Of a stretch of DNA of 64,000 bases, positions 44,805 through 55,075 are shown piece after piece. The stretch is from Mobula hypostoma. Its lineage: Eukaryota. The stretch covers positions 52,144,001-52,208,000 of the forward strand of contig NC_086108.1 in assembly GCF_963921235.1 (NCBI RefSeq), given 5' to 3'. Numbering within the stretch: the first letter of the stretch is position 1; every line of letters starts with the position of its first letter. The notes under the pieces are model-generated. The model was not told where the DNA came from. It ran no database searches and worked only from the letters and a program-made list of their open reading frames with translations. A program made the translations under genes and the position numbers.

Positions 44805-45041
44805 GTATGTAAAATTAAGCCACCATCTTCACTGAAAAGTCTCACTCAGATTTCCAGAATTTTGTTTGTTGTGTTTGTGTATTGACTGGTAGCAACATAC
44901 AAAGAAAATCCATACCAAGATTCTAGCTGAGTCCAAAATTCAGTTTGTGGAAATGGAAATTACATTAAAAGTAGTGGAATTAATGAAGCACAGTTCCCTG
45001 TGAGACTTCCATAAGCGACAAAAGTGGAAATATGGGAACTA

Positions 45042-46707
45042 AACACAAGGAAATCTGCAGATGCTGGAATATCAAGCAACACACATAAAAGTTGCTGGTG
45101 ACCGCAGTGGGCCAGGCAGCATCTCTAGGAAGAGGTATAGTCGACGTTTCAGGCCAAGACCCTTCGTCTGGACTAACTGTGAAAGAAGAGCTAGTAAGAG
45201 ATTTGAAAGTGGGAGGGGGAGGGGGAGATCCAAAATGATAGGAGAAGACAGGAGGGGGAGGGATGGAGCCAAGAGCTGGACAGGTGATTGGCAAAGGGGA
45301 TATGAGAGGATCATGGGACAGGAGGCCTGGGGAGAAAGAAAAGGGGGGGGGGAGAAGCCCAGAGGATGGGCAAGGGGTATAGTGAGAGGGACAGAGGGAG
45401 GAAATAAAAGAGAGAGAAAAAGAATGTGTGTATGTAAATAAATAACGGATGGGGTACGAGGGGGAGGTGGAGTATTAATGGAAGTTAGAGAAGTCGATGT
45501 TCATGCCATCAGGTTGGAGGCTACCCAGACGGAATATAAGGTGTTGTTCCTCCAACCTGAGTGTGGCTTCATCTTTACAGTAGAGGAGACCGTGGATAGA
45601 CATATCAGAATGGGAATGGGACATGGAATTAAAATGTGTGGCCACTGGAAGATCCTGCTTTCTTTGGCGGACAGAGCATAGGTGTTCAGCGAATCGATCT
45701 CCCAGTCTGCGCCGGGTCTCGCCAATGTATAGAAGGCCACATCGGGAGCACCGGACGCAGTATATCACCCCTGTCGACTCAGGTGAAGTGTCGCCTCACC
45801 CGGAAGGACTGTCTGGGGCCCTGAATGGTGGTAAGAGAGGAAGTGTAAGGGCATGTGTGGCACTTGTTCCGCTTACAAGGATAAGTGCCAGGAGGGGAGA
45901 TCAGTGGGGAGGGAATGGGGGGGGGGGATCGAATGGACAAGGGTCGCTTAGGGAGCGATCCCTGTGGAAAGCAGAGAGGGGCGGGGAGGGAAAGACGTGC
46001 TTAGTGGTGGGATCCTGTTGGAGGTGACGGAAGTTACGGAAAATTATATATTGGAGCCGGAGGCTCCTTCTGATGTGGCCTTCTGTATATTGGCGAGACC
46101 TGACGCAGACTGGGAGATCGTTTCACTGAACACCTACGCTCTGTCCGCCAGAGTAAGCAGGATCTTCCAGTGGCCACAGATTTTAATTCCATGTCCCATT
46201 CCCATTTTGATATGTCTATCCATGGCCTCCTCTACTGTAAAGATGAAACGACACTCAGGTTGGAGGAACAACACCTTATATTCCGTCTGGGTAGCCTCCA
46301 ACCTGATGGCATGAACATTGACTTCTCAAACTTCTGCTAACGCCCCTCCTACCCCATCTGTTACTTATTTATATACACACATTCTTTTTCTCTCTCTCCT
46401 TTTTCTCCCTCTGTCCATCTCGCTATACCCCTTGCCCATCCTCTGGTTTCCCCCCTCCCCCTTTTCTTTCTCCCTAGGCCTCCTGTCCCATGATCCTCTC
46501 ATACCCCTTTTGCTAATCAACTGTCCAGCTCTTAGCTCCATCCCTCCCCCTCCGGTCTTTTCCTATCATTTCGGATCTCCCCCTCCCCCCTCAAATCTCT
46601 TACTAGCTCTTCTTTCAGTTAGTCCTGATGAAGGGTCTCGGCCGGAAATGTTTACTGTACATCTTCCTAGAGATACTGCCTGGCCTGCTGCGTTCACCAG
46701 CAACTTT
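45042..46707. mobile_element. Penelope-like (GIY-YIG) element insertion with inverted fold-back structure
   Basis: 13-bp TSD AATATGGGAACTA (45029-45041, 46708-46720). GIY-YIG ORF 45475-45768(-) IYCVRCSRCGLLYIGETRRRLGDRFAEH; a second copy of the same 3' region on + at ~46070-46707. Confidence 0.92.
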
Positions 46708-47036
46708 AATATGGGAACTATCTCACTGGTGCAAGTAAGATCTGAGCTGCTTGGCTTTTTTGAGATTTGATTTATAAGATCTTGCACTTGCTGGCACATT
46801 GAGAAAAGTGTATACCAGATCAGGTGAACTAAAGGGCATTGTTTCTAGCATGGTGAGAGTACAATTACTGGAGGAAACTACAAGTATTAAAGTTTTCTCC
46901 AGCTCCCAGTATACAACCAGCTAGAACTGGTGTCATGTTGTATCACTCAGCTGTAAAACAACTTCCCTAATGCAGAAAGTAGGTGTAATGCTTCAGGAGA
47001 TTGATAGTGTACAGTAATAATTCTTTACTCTGTCAG

Positions 47037-47167
47037 AAGGTTTGCAGACAGCCTTGGATGAAGATGAAGCAATGGTTGAATCAGACCATGAAGACAGCAT
47101 GCGGACTGAGCTAGATCTAATGAAAGAGGAACTTCAGCTTGCCTTAAGAAAAGAGAAAGAGAGCAGG
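47037..47167 (+). CDS. PDE4DIP: Myomegalin exon 13 (..GLQTALDED...KEKESR)
   Basis: CAGAAG tandem acceptor, AGG|GTGAGT donor, phase 1 to 0. Confidence 0.88.
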
Positions 47168-47285
47168 GTGAGTTTTAAACTTGCTATTAATGGATAGGAC
47201 AGAATAGTCTGAATATAACCGTCATCTCCAGATTTGTGATTTAAAAATTTCATTAGTGTGTCACAGTTTCAGGTTTACTGAGGTA

Positions 47286-47807
47286 TACATTCAGTAGCCA
47301 GTATACTAGGTACACCTGGTGTGACTCCAAATAGCTTAATAGCTAATCATGTTGCAGCAACTTAACATGTAAAAGCATGCTGACATAGTCAGGAGATTCA
47401 GTTGTTGTTCAGACAAACATCAGAATGGAGAGAAATGTGATCTAAGTGACTTTGACCATAGAATGATTATTAGTGCCAGACAGGGTGGTTAGAGTATCTC
47501 AGAATCTGCTGATTTCCTGGGATTTTCATGCACAACAGTCTCAAGAATTTAGAGAGAATAGTACGGGAAAACAAAAACAAATCCAGTGAGCGTGAGTTCT
47601 GTGTGTAAAAATGCCTTGTTTATGAGAGAGGTCAGGAAAATGGTCAAACTGGTTCAAGCTGACAAGAAGGCAACAGTAACTCAAATAACCATGCATTACA
47701 ACAGAAGAGCATCTCTGAATGCACAACATGTCAAACCTTGAAGTGGATGGGCTACAGCAAAGAAAGCCATGAGCTTATACTCAATGATCACTTTATTAGG
47801 TACCTCC
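47286..47807 (+). mobile_element. Tc1/mariner non-autonomous element
   Basis: Homologous to 22751-23281. Confidence 0.85.
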
Positions 47808-48885
47808 TTTTTCCTCATATTCATTGAGTGTTTGTGATAGTGTAGGGGAATTTGAGAAGGGAATGCAAACGTTGCAGAAACATGTTGGAGAAGTAGGTTT
47901 TTGTTGTTATGGAGAGGGAAGCTACAGGTAATCTCAATGCTATCATGCAAGGACTGTGGAAATCATGAACTACTCCCACTAGAGCTGGCTATTCAGTAAT
48001 TTGGCAAAATGTGTGGCAGCATTCGATGAGACTCCAAAGTTTCTGTAATAAAGTGCTCAGCCAGCACTTGATTTTACTGTAACTGAAAGATGGTCAGTTT
48101 CATGAAGAAATTTAGGGGAAAATGTGGGGTTCACATGGGGAAAATAAAACTTCTTTAATTTAATTATCGGCGAGATGGAACTCACAGCACACAAGTTGAA
48201 GACTAAGGCAAAGTCTGACAGTTATTGAGATGAATGGACAGCTAAGATAACTAACAAAGAAATTCAGCTCAGGAAGTGAGGTTCCAGGCTGCCACAAAAC
48301 AATAAATTTCATGGCATTATCAGTGATAATAAAGCTGATTGTTTCCTTGAAACTTGGAAGTGACTAATTGTAAAGTTGCAGAAAAAAGGACCCCTTAAAA
48401 CAACAACTGGATAGAATAGATGAGCCTTGAATAAAGATCTTTGGGGGAAAAGTCACATAAGATATCACTGAATTCCTGACTAGCATATCCTGTAAAGCAC
48501 ATCAAACTCTTAAGTTCTTCAGTGTATTGAAATCAAGACTGAGTTAACCATAAGGAGCTATAATTTATCCTTTTCAAGACTTACAGAATCTCGTTAGACT
48601 TCAAGTCATAAATTTTTGATTTATTGTGGCTTTTATCCTGCTCTTTTTAATTCTGTCTCTTTGCAGCATTGGTGTGAATGGATCTGCTGCATGGATTTAT
48701 GACTATAACTTATAAGTTGAATTGAGTCATACATGTTGGCAATTTGCTGATGATTCTCTGTGTTATTGGGGAACATGCTTTGAGTTATTTTGAAAATGAT
48801 GCTCCATTAGATTGTTGAATGACTCTATTATGTAATTGATCTAAGGTTAAGTATCTAAATATGGGTTATATTTTTCTCTTTTCGG

Positions 48886-49002
48886 CTTGAACTGGCAATG
48901 CTGCAGTCTGCCCTTTTTGACCAGCAGCGAGAGCTCCAATGTCAGGCAGTGGAGATTGAAACACTCTCAAACAATATTCGTGACAAGGAAGAACACATTA
49001 TG
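48886..49002 (+). CDS. PDE4DIP: Myomegalin exon 14 (LELAMLQSAL...EEHIM); acceptor reads CGG, in-frame AG alternative start 48907
   Basis: Resembles recalled human MELSALQSMM..IKEDLIK; ATG|GTGAGT donor; pyrimidine tract ends TTCGG. Confidence 0.75.
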
Positions 49003-49369
49003 GTGAGTTTTAATTTAATCAGCAGTTGAATTGTTGTGGTTGTTTTGTTGTGATTTGAAGATCAGCTTGAAAGAAAAGTCTATATTTTCTGATTGGTGGG
49101 CTCTGTGGAGTTCCTGCTATGTGCTGAATTAGGGAAGGTTTTGTGTGTTCAATAGGATGTGGAACCAAAAGATCTTGCTGAATGATAGTCCAGGTAAATG
49201 AGAAATTTTAGAGCAACAGAGCAAGGTGTGACTTTTTATAATAATAACAAAATATTAATGTAAAAAAGATTGCATTATTGATTACAGATGTAAAAAAAAA
49301 CAGAATTGGTGTTGCTTTAGATTTGCCAGCTGAATGGTTTTGGTTCTTAATGATCTTGTTGCACTACAG

Positions 49370-49507
49370 GATCTGCAGAGGCAGCTGGAACAGCCAAGGG
49401 AATCTCCAGAGGTGGAAAAGCTTACACAAGAGCTCCTGAAATTGAAGGAGCAAGTGGCAACCATGAAATTATCTGCACAGAAAAGTGTAGGGAAAAAGTA
49501 TGATCAG
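49370..49507 (+). CDS. PDE4DIP: Myomegalin exon 15 (DLQRQLEQ...KKYDQ)
   Basis: CTACAG acceptor, CAG|GTGTGT, 138 nt. Confidence 0.88.
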
Positions 49508-50131
49508 GTGTGTAATTTTTCTCCTTTTCATAAGCGTGCATCAATCTAGTACTTACACATTTCAATCAAGTGAGGCTTAAGCATGCTGAACTCCAGCAAT
49601 TTATAAACCTTGTTGCAGTAAATAATAGTCCCCTTAGGTTATTTAAGTAGTAATTTGATCAGATCAAATTCATTAGTGAGTCAAGAGGTTGAAAGCAGTA
49701 AATAGTAAATGGATGGGATGACCTATGGGCTAACTGATTTGGGTAGCACAAGTACATTAAATTGTGATCCTATTAGAAAGACACAGGTAAATTTAAAATT
49801 CATTTATAAATTAGTAAGACTACTGTCCTAGTTTATTAATGGTACCATATGGAAAGAAGGTTGAAAAAAATTAGAGCAATGAAAAAAATAGAAAACATGA
49901 ATCGAATTGTGTTTAAGAAAGCTGCAGTTTTCAAAAGGTCAAAAAATGAGCTCAAATTAAATGATTGTGTTCTATTTCGAGCCAATGGGAATTGATTGTT
50001 TTTTTTTCTTCCTAAAAGTACTCCCCAATTTCTTCTCTACTGAAATCATTCACTTTTTTAATGCATACTCTGTGCATTAAATATCTTCTGGTAGCTGTGC
50101 CAATTGATTATCACTCATGTACTTCGAATGT

Positions 50132-50690
50132 ATGGGGTGTCAGGGACGGGTAGCACCTCTGGTGGGGGAACATGTTGCGTCCTTTTCAGGGCGGTTAGTC
50201 CACCTTTGGTCCCCACCTGGCACTCAGCTCTTACCTGTGGCTCCCCGTAGCTGTTTGCATGCGACAGCGGCCACACCCCGGGCAACGGCTTCGACAAGCT
50301 GGCTAAACCAGGTGAGGGTAGCCGACGGGTCTCAAACCCTCGGTGAGATAGGGAGTTGTCTATCCCAGCATGTGAAGACAAACTCCGACGGATTGAGCGG
50401 ACGAGATCCATGGAAGGTCCAACGGTCAAGAAGGCGGTCTCTGCAAGCATCATGGAACGTGTAGAGCAGGACAAGACAGAGAAGACATCCTGGTCATCCA
50501 CTGCGCCTAGTCCCATCTCCAGCCGTCTAGACTCTGTCTTGCCACTGGATCCAGATGGGAATTGGGAAGAGAGAGTGAGGCTGACGCTGCGCAACTCTCC
50601 CTCACTTAAATCCAAATGACGCGCTAGTCTCCACACCATGATAATGGTGTCGAGGTCCTCATCGACGTCAACAATGGACGAACAACAACA
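50132..50690 (+). mobile_element. Short non-autonomous non-LTR retroelement (RTE-like) with 5' ribozyme and (CAA)n tail
   Basis: 11-bp TSD ACTTCGAATGT/ACTTTGAATGT (50121-50131, 50691-50701); AACAACAACA tail; CpG-rich; no tRNA A/B boxes seen. Confidence 0.85.
50134..50318 (+). ncRNA. HDV-like (double pseudoknot) self-cleaving ribozyme
   Basis: P1 GGGGTGT(50134-40)/ACACCCC(50273-79); P2 50228-38/50307-18; P3 GGC/GCC; L3 starts TCCCCGT; P1.1 CC/GG; G-CAA; P4 CGGCTT-cgac-AAGCTG; J4/2 GCTAA with putative catalytic C50303. Confidence 0.82.
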
Positions 50691-50977
50691 ACTTTGAATG
50701 TCCTCAGGTTATTCAGATATCCAGTGAATAGAAATCATAACCAAGCCTTATTATTTTCATTAGTTTCCATTATCTATACCTGTCGTGATGATTTCTCAGT
50801 AGTGACAGTGAACAGGTAAATATTTCCCTTTCCAACCTTAATTTAAAGACAAGGCGGATGATATTTTCATTTGGGATGGCAGGAGAAATTATGTGTCTCT
50901 AAGTGAACACAAAGGCCATTTCCCTCAAATAACAAGGTATTTCAGTGTTTCTTACTGTTACCAATTTTTATTGGCAG

Positions 50978-51090
50978 CTGATCTGTGCTCTTGAAGAACA
51001 GTTATTGGAGCAGTCTCACCTAAACGAAGCACTTCGAGCTGAAAGACAACTCTATATTAGCCTCGTTAAATTCCATAATCAAACTGACAG
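50978..51090 (+). CDS. PDE4DIP: Myomegalin exon 16 (LICALEEQ...LNEALRAERQLYISLVKFHNQTD)
   Basis: GGCAG acceptor, CAG|GTAAGA, phase 0 to 2; resembles recalled human LNEALQAERQLYSSLVKFH. Confidence 0.92.
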
Positions 51091-52101
51091 GTAAGACAAA
51101 GTCCTGACTTGGCGTAGATTTTTGAAGTCAGTGTGAGTATATAGAATGTGTTCTCTTTTGTTAGTATTTGATTCAAACTGCTCACCGTTTTTAAAAGGAA
51201 TATCAGTTTTCTCTGTGATATTTCCACATATGTTTCTATATACTTTACCAGATATTATAAAAGTGTAATGATTAAAATAACTAAAATTGAAGGTTATTCG
51301 TTAGTAACATGTATGCCATCAGAATAGAAGGGACCCCCTGTTACAATTTTGTCTCCTTTCCAAAGTTAAGTAATCTTATTTATTTCAAATATAATTATGA
51401 AATGGTAAGCCTGTTGGATGAAGAAATTTGCGTGGAATAATTTTTTACAGATTCACATCCAAAAAATTAATATTGCTTGACATGAAGATTGAGAATAGTT
51501 GTATAACACTGTATTAACATCAATGCTGGCACATACACCAGCAAGGAATCTAGTTATTAATATTACTGGCTGGATCATTGTGCAAGATGAAAGTTATAGC
51601 CTTGTATGGCAATAAATACATACAAGGGAACTATGAATCATTACTTGTTCAATTTGATACCACTTGACGTTTTCATCTTCTATTGTTCAAAATACTTTCT
51701 CTGAATTTTCCAACCTAGATATTGATTTATATTTTCATTAACTATAAACAGTATCTCTTACAGCTGGGTCTCAAAATTTGTCCTGTTTAATTGATAATCT
51801 CATCTATGCCCACTAGTTAATGTTCAGTCTATTTTAATGTCTCCAAATTCAAAACCATCTTTTCATCCACTCCCTTCCTCCAGATAAGTTTCTGTGGTAA
51901 CTCTTTAAGCCTGTAAGGCTGTTTTGTTAAAAGGTACATCTCTTGTAAGTGGTTTGGGAAATTGAAGTGCTCAACCATGGTCACTGTAACAATGTTCTGT
52001 GGTTCTCGTAGACCATATGCATCTGTTGTTAGTTCATTGGGTACTGTCTTCAGTAGATTGATTTAGCTCATTTTTGTCTCTAAATTCACATTTCCACTTA
52101 G

Positions 52102-52321
52102 CACCAGCAGAGAAAAGATGCTCCAGACTGAACTCATGGCTGTACAGGCACTCCGTGGACATCTGGAAGAGGCCCTCAGGAGAACCCAGGAGCAGATTGG
52201 CAGGCTGGAGAAGGAGCCTGAGATCTCAGCAGATTCTGGAGGTGGGGGAATGGAGAGGCTGGCAAGTCTGCAAGAGCATGTGGCCTGCTCTACTGAGGTG
52301 TCTCGCAGCCAAACCACATAG
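52102..52321 (+). CDS. PDE4DIP: Myomegalin exon 17: terminal exon of the short isoform (stop 52319-52321); internal donor after 52241 for the long isoform
   Basis: CACTTAG acceptor in phase 2; LQTELMAVQALRGHLEEAL; GGAG|GTGGGG internal donor. Confidence 0.85.
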
Positions 52322-52587
52322 CGTGCAGTGGAATATGGGCTTGTGGTTAGCCGAAAAATCTTGCTAACAGGAAATGCCTGCTTAATGCCAATGGGGTTTT
52401 ACTGTTTACTAACTAATTGTGTGCAATGTTAACTGACCTGGATTCAGAAAATCATGATTGTACCATATATGTTAATAGTTTTCCTTGTCATATAGAATTC
52501 ATGACTCAGGATGTATTACGTGTTATCATGAGAAGAAAAAGATCATTCTATTTTAAGTTATTGCATTTTCCCTGTTTATGTTGATGA

Positions 52588-52593
52588 AATAAA
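52588..52593 (+). terminator. Candidate polyadenylation signal of the short isoform
   Basis: AATAAA ~270 nt after the stop, followed by a T-rich tract. Confidence 0.45.
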
Positions 52594-54299
52594 AATTTCA
52601 TTTCAATTTTCTCATTTTGCCTATGCACATTTTCCATTTTGAATGCATGAACCATCTTTCCTCCAGCAAAGCCTTCCCACCATATCCTACCTGTCTTCTT
52701 TCCCTTCGTCCCTCAAAATTCAGTTATCAATTTGCTAAGCAAATTTATTCGACCTTACTGAATGTCTGGAGTAAATAAGCAATTTTGCAATTAAGTTATA
52801 ATAACATATACATATATTTAATATGTATATATTTAATAGCTTGATTGAAGATTTTTTTAAAAGTTGCTCCTAAATTGGGTTGAACTGTTTGTGTAGATAT
52901 TCATTTATTAGTAATATTACTACTTCTAAAAGCATGATATCAGCTGTATGTGTTGTGGACCATACTGGTCCCAAATGTTTTTCCAAGATACCCCTTGGTT
53001 ACAGTGGCAGTAAGTATCTCTATTTTATCACTTCTTGCTATCTAATTCAGGAAAGAATGAAACTTTGTGCTGGATATTAATTTTGATCACCAAAGGCTGC
53101 AAATTTGCCATATGGAAAGCACAGAAGTCAAACACACTCCTGACCACAAGTGACTTGAGATTTTGTATATAAAAGTCTGAATTAATTTCTAAACAAATTA
53201 GTTTGCTAATATCTTTAAGAAGCTGTTTCAGTGATGGATATTGGGCATGGATAAGTTCTAAACTTCGTAACTATTTTCAAATTGCATAGCATCCCCAGTT
53301 TATTATCTAACTTGTACAGTTGACAGTTTTGAGAATAGAACAATCCATTTAGAAATTTTAGATCAATGATAGTAATATACTCAGCATTGCTGGAAATTGA
53401 TAACCAGCTTATTGTTTACCAGTATTTTCATTTCTAAATGGTAGTTTCCTTCATATCTTCGTCATTTCTACATTACAGTGTCCTTGCTCATCAGATATTA
53501 TGTGATGGTTCATACGTTTCCTGAATTTGTTATCTGAGGGTTCATTCATTTTTGTCTTTTTATTATGCTTCTAAACAGATATAGTTTCCATATTTACAGG
53601 GACATCTGTGTTGGTGATTGAAAACCCTTTTCGATACTCTATAAGCAATTAATGAAAATGCGTAATAACAATGTTATGTCTCTGCAAGTAATGGCCTGAG
53701 ATATATTAGTTTACATTGAATCCAAAACAAAAATAAATGATAAATTATTCTGGTTTATTCCACTTCTTGACCAGTGTCAGCTATCAGGGGTTGATTCCAC
53801 TAATGTTTACAACTTCCAAAAATTCACCCAGGTAGCCCTCATTGATATGTTAATGGTGAATGTTGACAGGCTTTTCGACTACACAATCTCCTCATGTGGC
53901 ATTCATAGTGAATGAATGACAATCAGGTATGGGAATCCAGCCATTCTAACCCCGTTAATCAAAAGAAGATGATTTGTATCCTGCTTTATCTTCTGATGGT
54001 ATATGTAGTCTGTTACTTTCTGGTATTTAATTTCTCTCGTTTTCTCCAACAACTATATGAAAAATTAAATAGGGGCTGCTACTCCCATAATTCATGGCAA
54101 CAGTAAGAATCCATTCTTGAATCAAGAGGCCCATTATTCAATGGAGACTGTTTGTTATTTCTTTGAATGCCAAGATTTCCAGGAATAATAAACGACAGCA
54201 CTTGTATTCACACAGCTGGACCGATATAAAGAAAGAATGCAGATGCCACATATTAGCCTTTCACAGAAGGGCACTGATTGTTAGCCACTTTATAAAGAA

Positions 54300-55075
54300 A
54301 TATTAGAACATAAAATAGTACAACACAAAGCAGCCCTTTAGCCCACAATGTTGTACCGAACCAAATAAATAATCAAATGGCCAACTAAATTAATTCCTTC
54401 TGCCTACACAATGTCCGTATTTCTTCTTTTTCCTCACATTCATGTACCTCTCTAAACGTCCGGAATGTATCTGCCTCAACCACTACGCTAGTAGCATATT
54501 TCAGGTACTCACCACTCTGTGTTATATAATGAAACTTGTGCCTCACATACCCAGTCTCACCTTAAATGAATGCCCTTTGGTACTAGACATTTCAATTCTG
54601 GGAAAAAAACACTGTCTGTTTGCCTACTCTTTATGCCTCTCATATCTTCTAAATCACTACCAGATCTCCTCTCAGCCTCTACCACTCCAGAGAAAACAAC
54701 CCCGGGTTTGTCCAACCTCTCATGCCCCTTAATGCAGGCAGAATCCTGGTAGACCTGTAAACCTCTTCTGTACCCTCTCCAAAGCCTCATCCCTCCTGTA
54801 ATGGCCACTTTCAGAGAGACATGAATTTCGAACCCAAGATCCTTCTACTCATTGACACTATTAAGGGTTTTGTCATTAACAGTGTACTGCCTCTGTATTT
54901 GACCTGCCAAAGTACAACACTTCACATTTGGCCAGGATAAACTTCATCTGCTATTTCTCCACACATATCTACAACTGATCTATATCCCACTGTATTATTT
55001 GCCAGTATATACATCATTCACAACATCACCGACCTTCGTATCATCTACAATGTTGGTATCAAATTGATTATGCAG
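54300..55075 (-). mobile_element. Degraded CR1 LINE 3' portion
   Basis: VDDTKVGDVV and HERLDKPG..FS remnants; CR1-type 3'UTR at ~54305-54360. Confidence 0.7.

Follow-up and report, generated by a model that had tools for sequence, protein, structure and literature searches.

An HDV-like ribozyme fold with a hairpin inside L3 at the head of an RTE family: a lineage-wide variant with predicted self-cleavage

The best explanation of our data, and a probable one, is that an RTE family in this genome is headed by an HDV-like ribozyme core which is likely to cut itself, and that a hairpin inserted into L3 of this core forms a side helix shared by the whole lineage. Sequence comparison shows the hairpin to be real and lineage-wide: a structural variant of a known ribozyme, located where such ribozymes are known to occur, with self-cleavage predicted. 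The copy described here belongs to a non-autonomous element at 50132-50690 of the window, by which we mean the whole 64,000-nt stretch of DNA that was analysed; features lie on the plus strand unless stated otherwise. Published work is cited here from excerpts.

The L3 hairpin and the surrounding fold

In the window copy L3 measures 28 nt (50242-50269) and lies between the P3 strands GGC (50239-50241) and GCC (50270-50272). It begins with an ordinary 7-nt core, UCCCCGU (50242-50248), whose bases we take to be the equivalents of HDV U20, C21, C22, C24 and G25. The inserted element that follows (50249-50269) consists of an A, a 6-bp stem made of GCUGUU (50250-50255) and GACAGC (50263-50268), the loop UGCAUGC (50256-50262) and a final G, just as a sequence-only reading of this region had described L3, stem, loop and both junction bases. 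Where the published descriptor has a pyrimidine, the last L3 base is this G, which could wobble with U20.

The five helices P1, P1.1, P2, P3 and P4 are present in nested double-pseudoknot order, as seen from complementarity and, for P2 and P4, from covariation in an alignment of 16 rows; P1 and P3 show no covariation. The 5′ strand of P2 (50230-50237) pairs with 50309-50316 (97.7% of cells paired, two of eight pairs changed on both sides). Immediately after L3, the sequence 50270-50282 contains P3′ GCC, P1′ ACACCCC (50273-50279), P1.1′ GG and one more G, with P1.1 formed by CC (50243-50244) and GG (50280-50281). P4 is a 6-bp hairpin at 50286-50301 (50286-91/50296-301) in which five of the six pairs have changed on both sides, and the next segment (50302-50316) holds J4/2, GCUAAA with the putative catalytic C50303 (a C in 16 of 16 rows), followed by P2′. 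Upstream of P2 a structured J1/2 domain is predicted at 50135-50225, closed in the folds by 50135-44/50216-25; equivalents of this closing helix with other sequences exist in the relatives L220, L209 and L224. Besides the catalytic C, the counterparts of U20, C21 and G25, the inserted A and two As of J4/2 are invariant in all 16 rows. The base corresponding to C24 is kept in the family of the window copy and is an A in lineage B, the older short element, L209/L227 and L223. The conserved core of the HDV ribozyme comprises U20, C24, G25 and C75 (PMC6326823). Common to the present fold and to the genomic HDV and CPEB3 ribozymes are U20, C21, C22, C24, G25, the GG of P1.1, a GCAA-like J1.1/4 and the C..A in J4/2; the fold differs from them in that a 21-nt insert replaces the eighth L3 base of genomic HDV, CPEB3 having seven, and the pair formed by G1 is G-C.

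U27 is the HDV base at the corresponding position. The premise of the sequence-only reading that this base is bulged (extruded) and dispensable agrees, indirectly, with an L3 of 7 nt in the antigenomic HDV and CPEB3 ribozymes against 8 nt in genomic HDV (bioRxiv 2022.09.22.508989); no direct passage on a U27 deletion was found in the excerpted literature, and a simulation in which U27 can come into contact with the −1 phosphate (PMC1874588) speaks against the premise.

In the RNArobo descriptors for HDV ribozymes, L3 is fixed as TYYHCG..Y (~7-8 nt) and J1/2 may not exceed 50 nt (PMC4870747 and supplement). The 28-nt L3 falls outside this definition, so we have filed the structure as an HDV-like ribozyme variant. 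The expectation that short-L3 descriptors would overlook it was correct, and in fact the family would be missed twice over because of both the fixed L3 length and the J1/2 limit. Our own descriptor gave one match in the window with an L3 of 6-45 nt and none with 6-10 nt, and it is loose (six matches in 20 shuffles, two in the reversed window). Rfam models had no match at E≤1 within 45000-55000. Taken alone, the L3 hairpin has a folding energy of −6.6 kcal/mol and a z of −1.34, which is within chance since 16 of 200 shuffles were as good. With an unremarkable isolated hairpin, a loose descriptor and no Rfam match, the case for the L3 hairpin therefore rests on conservation and covariation. In pseudoknot-free ensembles the hairpin forms with a probability of 0.41 in the window copy, 0.11 in L224 and 0.01 in L220 (0.01-0.82 outside the window copy), and comparing such ensembles with and without the hairpin gave results that were inconsistent from sequence to sequence. 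A pairing between UGUGGC and GCCACA is a predicted competitor that can lengthen P3 at the cost of P1. Another parse, with P3 as CAC/GUG and P1′ as GCUCCCC, was dropped by eye for its mismatched P1 and its want of a matching P2′.

Conservation and distribution of the hairpin

Across the whole genome, a pattern with exact L3 flanks matched 1349 times with a gap of 9-39 nt and not once with a gap of 0-8 nt; the reversed control had no match. Among the 100 matches listed, 99 have a 28-nt L3 and the remaining one is a deletion, and a looser pattern for a short L3 found a single deletion copy. An insertion specific to one copy is ruled out by these numbers, and together with the presence of the hairpin in other lineages they make it a family-wide structural variant, as had been proposed. 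The carriers are the autonomous parents of the element, two further RTE lineages (A and B), an older short element and five relatives from metagenomes. The hairpin is unchanged in the older short element despite ~25% divergence, and it is kept in lineage A, where the L3 core reads UCCUCGU. In lineage B, and in L209 and L227 from metagenomes, the stem is reduced to 5 bp, GCUGU/GCAGC, and the loops are different. At the same site the metagenome locus L220 has GUCAC/GUGAC between the same flanking A and G, and its P2, P4 and J1/2 are different. Because the hairpin is kept across such distant relatives, a side helix built into this ribozyme core is likely to be tolerated by it.

The 16 rows of the covariation alignment were hand-picked as the least decayed. 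Over the whole fold 95.9% of cells are paired and 11 of 23 pairs have changed on both sides, compared with 3.9 in shuffles (0 of 500 matching the observed value) and 1-3 in slid controls; the 15 rows other than L220 are related, so that the shuffle control overstates the support. For the L3 helix 96.9% of cells are paired and three of the four counted pairs have changed on both sides, the fifth pair being misaligned and left out of the count (by eye, it goes from U-A to C-G in L220). Every double change in this helix comes from L220, a distant relative with no RTE reading frame behind it. Counted in this way, the compensatory evidence for the L3 helix is worth one event. Substitution rates among 83 copies (0.006-0.014 at non-CpG sites) are low everywhere and uninformative on selection for the hairpin.

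The hairpin-bearing lineages have endonucleases that are 44-64% identical in amino acids, and ribozyme cores that are 76-93% identical. Between the parent (L268/L284) and lineage A (L247, L250) the cores are 93% and the endonucleases 51-53% identical, which suggests either that RTE lineages have exchanged their 5′ heads or that constraint is very strong. Three other RTE families of this genome (L270/273/275, L271/281 and L187/191/192) have HDV-like heads with a 7-nt L3, read by eye from decayed copies. The head in L187 spans L187:1590-1760, and in two of the three families the P4 region is apparently large. In a fourth, young RTE family (L262, L263, L265, L266, L267) no HDV-like motif could be read in the GC-rich, variable heads; its downstream 5′ UTR is common with the window element (~75% over 232-505). 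An endonuclease tree did not resolve a single gain of the hairpin: carriers were not grouped against the short-L3 families, with weak support, and the parent lineage fell outside a weak group (86/86) of A, B, L224 and the short-L3 families. Since the tree leaves the carriers ungrouped, gain, loss or head-swapping may account for the distribution of the hairpin.

A metagenome scan gave 30 matches, of which five are relatives and 25 were judged to be chance. The five scored 76-109 bits in a covariance model built from the same five, all others at most 19. Among 30 pattern matches in viral contigs one had a P1 partner starting with G and none was judged to be a full fold; a second pattern had no match in these contigs and a protein scan gave one match of 21 residues. 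A pattern for a further P4 variant had no match, and a route through DUF6451 led to other RTE families and not to the parent. DNA nearly identical to the element is present in sequencing runs of five organisms. The motif occurs in RNA contigs, from which neither transcription nor an RNA start can be read. In one metagenome contig the copy of a relative (L209:3163-4308) stands directly before a reading frame that by eye resembles a ubiquitin protease.

The host element, the P1 register and the predicted cut

The window element is ~560 nt long, ends in a (CAA)n tail and is flanked by target-site duplications, ACTTCGAATGT on the left (50121-50131) and ACTTTGAATGT on the right (50691-50701). A DNA search gave 2152 candidates, and the 40 that were scored are 97-100% identical. 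The autonomous parents were found in this genome with the metagenome relative L224 as bait, a sequence which runs on into endonuclease and reverse-transcriptase frames with Pfam domains. About 520 nt of the element come from the 5′ end of a parent (88-93% identical in L268, L272, L276 and L280) and the last ~49 nt from the 3′ end, ~4 kb downstream, where three of the four parents are 81-89% identical. The element is thus bipartite, both parts matching one autonomous element that encodes an endonuclease and a reverse transcriptase. We take the clade to be RTE from sequence motifs and the names of homologues (e.g. craniofacial development protein 2). Bipartite non-autonomous elements are known from RTE, and in RTESINE1/2 and WALLSI3, too, an internal deletion has brought together the two ends, 5′ and 3′, of an autonomous RTE (PMC5786205). 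The window element is of another family, which may already carry a name.

Several other features of the element were observed. The junction of its two parts (~50642-45) lies in the loop of a hairpin (50629-50654), and because the arms of this hairpin come from different halves, the distant ends of the parent may pair. At ~50577-50612 a hairpin GTGAGG...CCTCAC is followed by TTAAA; by eye, the older element has GTGGAA...TTCCAC in the same place, and a similar motif is seen in other RTE 5′ UTRs. The minus strand has an open frame of 197 codons (50115-50708) that is also open in many other copies, probably a by-product of young age. In a subgroup of the older element (L099, L100, L102, L104, L108, L115, L120, L092) another 5′ part replaces P1 and most of J1/2. 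Several members of the subgroup reach a common end, about CCACTGTA, which resembles the inverted repeat of a DNA transposon.

Full-length copies start with two GGGGTGT repeats separated by AT, the first lying 9 nt upstream of the second. P1 of the family is formed by the first repeat, where its cut site is likely to lie as well; the sequence-only reading had missed this. The second repeat (50134-50140) is, in the family, the 5′ arm of the helix closing J1/2 (P1.2). After removal from 89 loci of five not covering the ribozyme, one duplicate and three truncated inside it, 80 copies reaching the second repeat could be scored, and the first repeat was matched in at least 6 of 7 letters in 60, in 5 of 7 in 11 and in at most 4 of 7 in nine. 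Target-site duplications of at least 8 nt (n = 48) end most commonly at offset 0 from the first G (10/48), and 20 of the 48 end at 0 to +2, in a wide scatter from −17 to +9. Constrained folds favoured P1 with the first repeat by 8.4 (L003), 3.5 (L209) and 12.8 (L224) kcal/mol; the two registers were equal in L247 (−61.9 vs −61.6, a difference of 0.3 kcal/mol), and L220 has a single repeat and an unrelated J1/2-closing helix.

The window copy has lost the first repeat. Its place (50125-50131) is occupied by the left target-site duplication, which matches in four of seven letters and lacks the GGGG, and the second repeat is the only possible P1 strand. Since the target-site duplication replaces the GGGG, P1 must here compete with the J1/2 helix, and a fold with the second repeat in P1 reached −57.9 kcal/mol compared with −57.2 kcal/mol without P1. 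This copy is probably impaired as a ribozyme, either slow or dead.

These data can be combined in a model for the intact family. RTE RNA would cut itself from an upstream host read-through transcript, just before the G that opens the first GGGGUGU, with the C75 equivalent C50303 as the presumed catalytic base. Meanwhile the second repeat would be paired in the P1.2 helix and should speed up cleavage as in drz-Agam-2-1. Placed after the seventh L3 base instead of the optional eighth, the hairpin would turn L3 into a three-way junction with the catalytic bases in place and form a side helix that projects from the core and has a structural role. Pairing of the insert and its junction bases A and G would be maintained by selection, the helix stacking away from the active site with no loop-loop dimerisation. 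Cleavage by RTE ribozymes takes place at the 5′ junction of the element (PMC3774820, citing Ruminski 2011), and the HDV-like ribozymes of RTE 5′ ends (PMC3774820, PMC5786205, PMC6765202) have the same double pseudoknot at the exact 5′ end and the same predicted junction cut. In the present family, however, L3 comprises 26-29 nt with an internal helix rather than 7-8 nt, and the P1 strand is duplicated with its second copy closing J1/2. The ribozyme drz-Agam-2-1 from Anopheles also has a large structured J1/2 closed by P1.2, a helix that speeds cleavage, and an extended P2, but the excerpted text mentions no helix in its L3, which is part of the active site (PMC4908430).

Alternative readings and meaning of the variant

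The palindromic GCAUGC of the loop had raised the possibility of kissing or dimer contacts. Four lineages have it (young/parent, A, older short element and L223), dimerisation of the isolated hairpin is predicted to gain 15 kcal/mol compared with 3-8 for the others, and CPEB3 ribozymes dimerise via an L3 palindrome in crystals (bioRxiv 2022.09.22.508989). However, the computed dimer is an extended duplex rather than a kiss, CPEB3 is catalytically incompetent as a dimer (same source), and four of eight lineages (B, L209/L227, L224 and L220) lack the 6-nt palindrome while the stem stays. As the palindrome has been lost in these four, kissing is unlikely to be a requirement, and we regard dimerisation of two element RNAs through this loop as very improbable altogether. 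It is somewhat less improbable, yet still hardly to be expected, that cleavage is damped or abolished by the hairpin in combination with the lengthened P3 and the doubled P1 strand, and that the motif, weak or dead as a ribozyme, is kept as a structured 5′ end. L3 does belong to the active site (PMC4908430), the −1 phosphate contact of U27 in simulation (PMC1874588) would be compatible with interference, C24 is an A in several lineages and competing pairings are predicted. Against this stand the clustering of element ends at the predicted cut site, the invariant catalytic bases and the covariation of P2 and P4.

A working ribozyme might, on the other hand, merely tolerate a hairpin that is kept for a second job, such as binding of an RTE protein, a tertiary contact with J1/2, or translation start or 5′-end protection after cleavage. 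We consider this doubtful. GCUG/CAGC hardly varies, nor do the A and G on either side of it, where proteins differ by about half and P4 drifts freely, the hairpin could have been deleted to leave 7 nt and was not, and protein-binding and IRES-like roles have been proposed for the R2 and L1Tc ribozymes (PMC6765202). Yet L220 swaps the whole stem sequence, the loop varies, and 7 nt suffice in three other RTE families; moreover P2, P3 and P1′ are conserved equally, so that slow evolution of the core, or its transfer as a module from lineage to lineage, may be explanation enough. A more far-reaching possibility, to which we give limited though not negligible weight, is an undescribed active class of HDV-like ribozymes across animal RTEs, invisible to descriptors, with L3 as a three-way junction, a functional helix and a modular head. 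The helix would then dock on J1/2 or bind an element protein and, with the duplicated P1, tune the timing of the cut.

The L3 helix was not found in the literature searched, and the excerpts of PMC6765202, PMC4035085, PMC9901934, PMC13635239 and PMC10879173 contain no such helix. The preferred reading, a lineage-wide side helix on a likely self-cutting ribozyme, matters because L3 is part of the active site and its length is treated as fixed by published descriptors. If the variant is natural and active, peripheral domains would have a third site in L3, in addition to J1/2 and P4, and aptamers or crystallisation modules could be attached at a new point beside the active site. Descriptor searches would then also have missed thousands of ribozyme copies in animal genomes.
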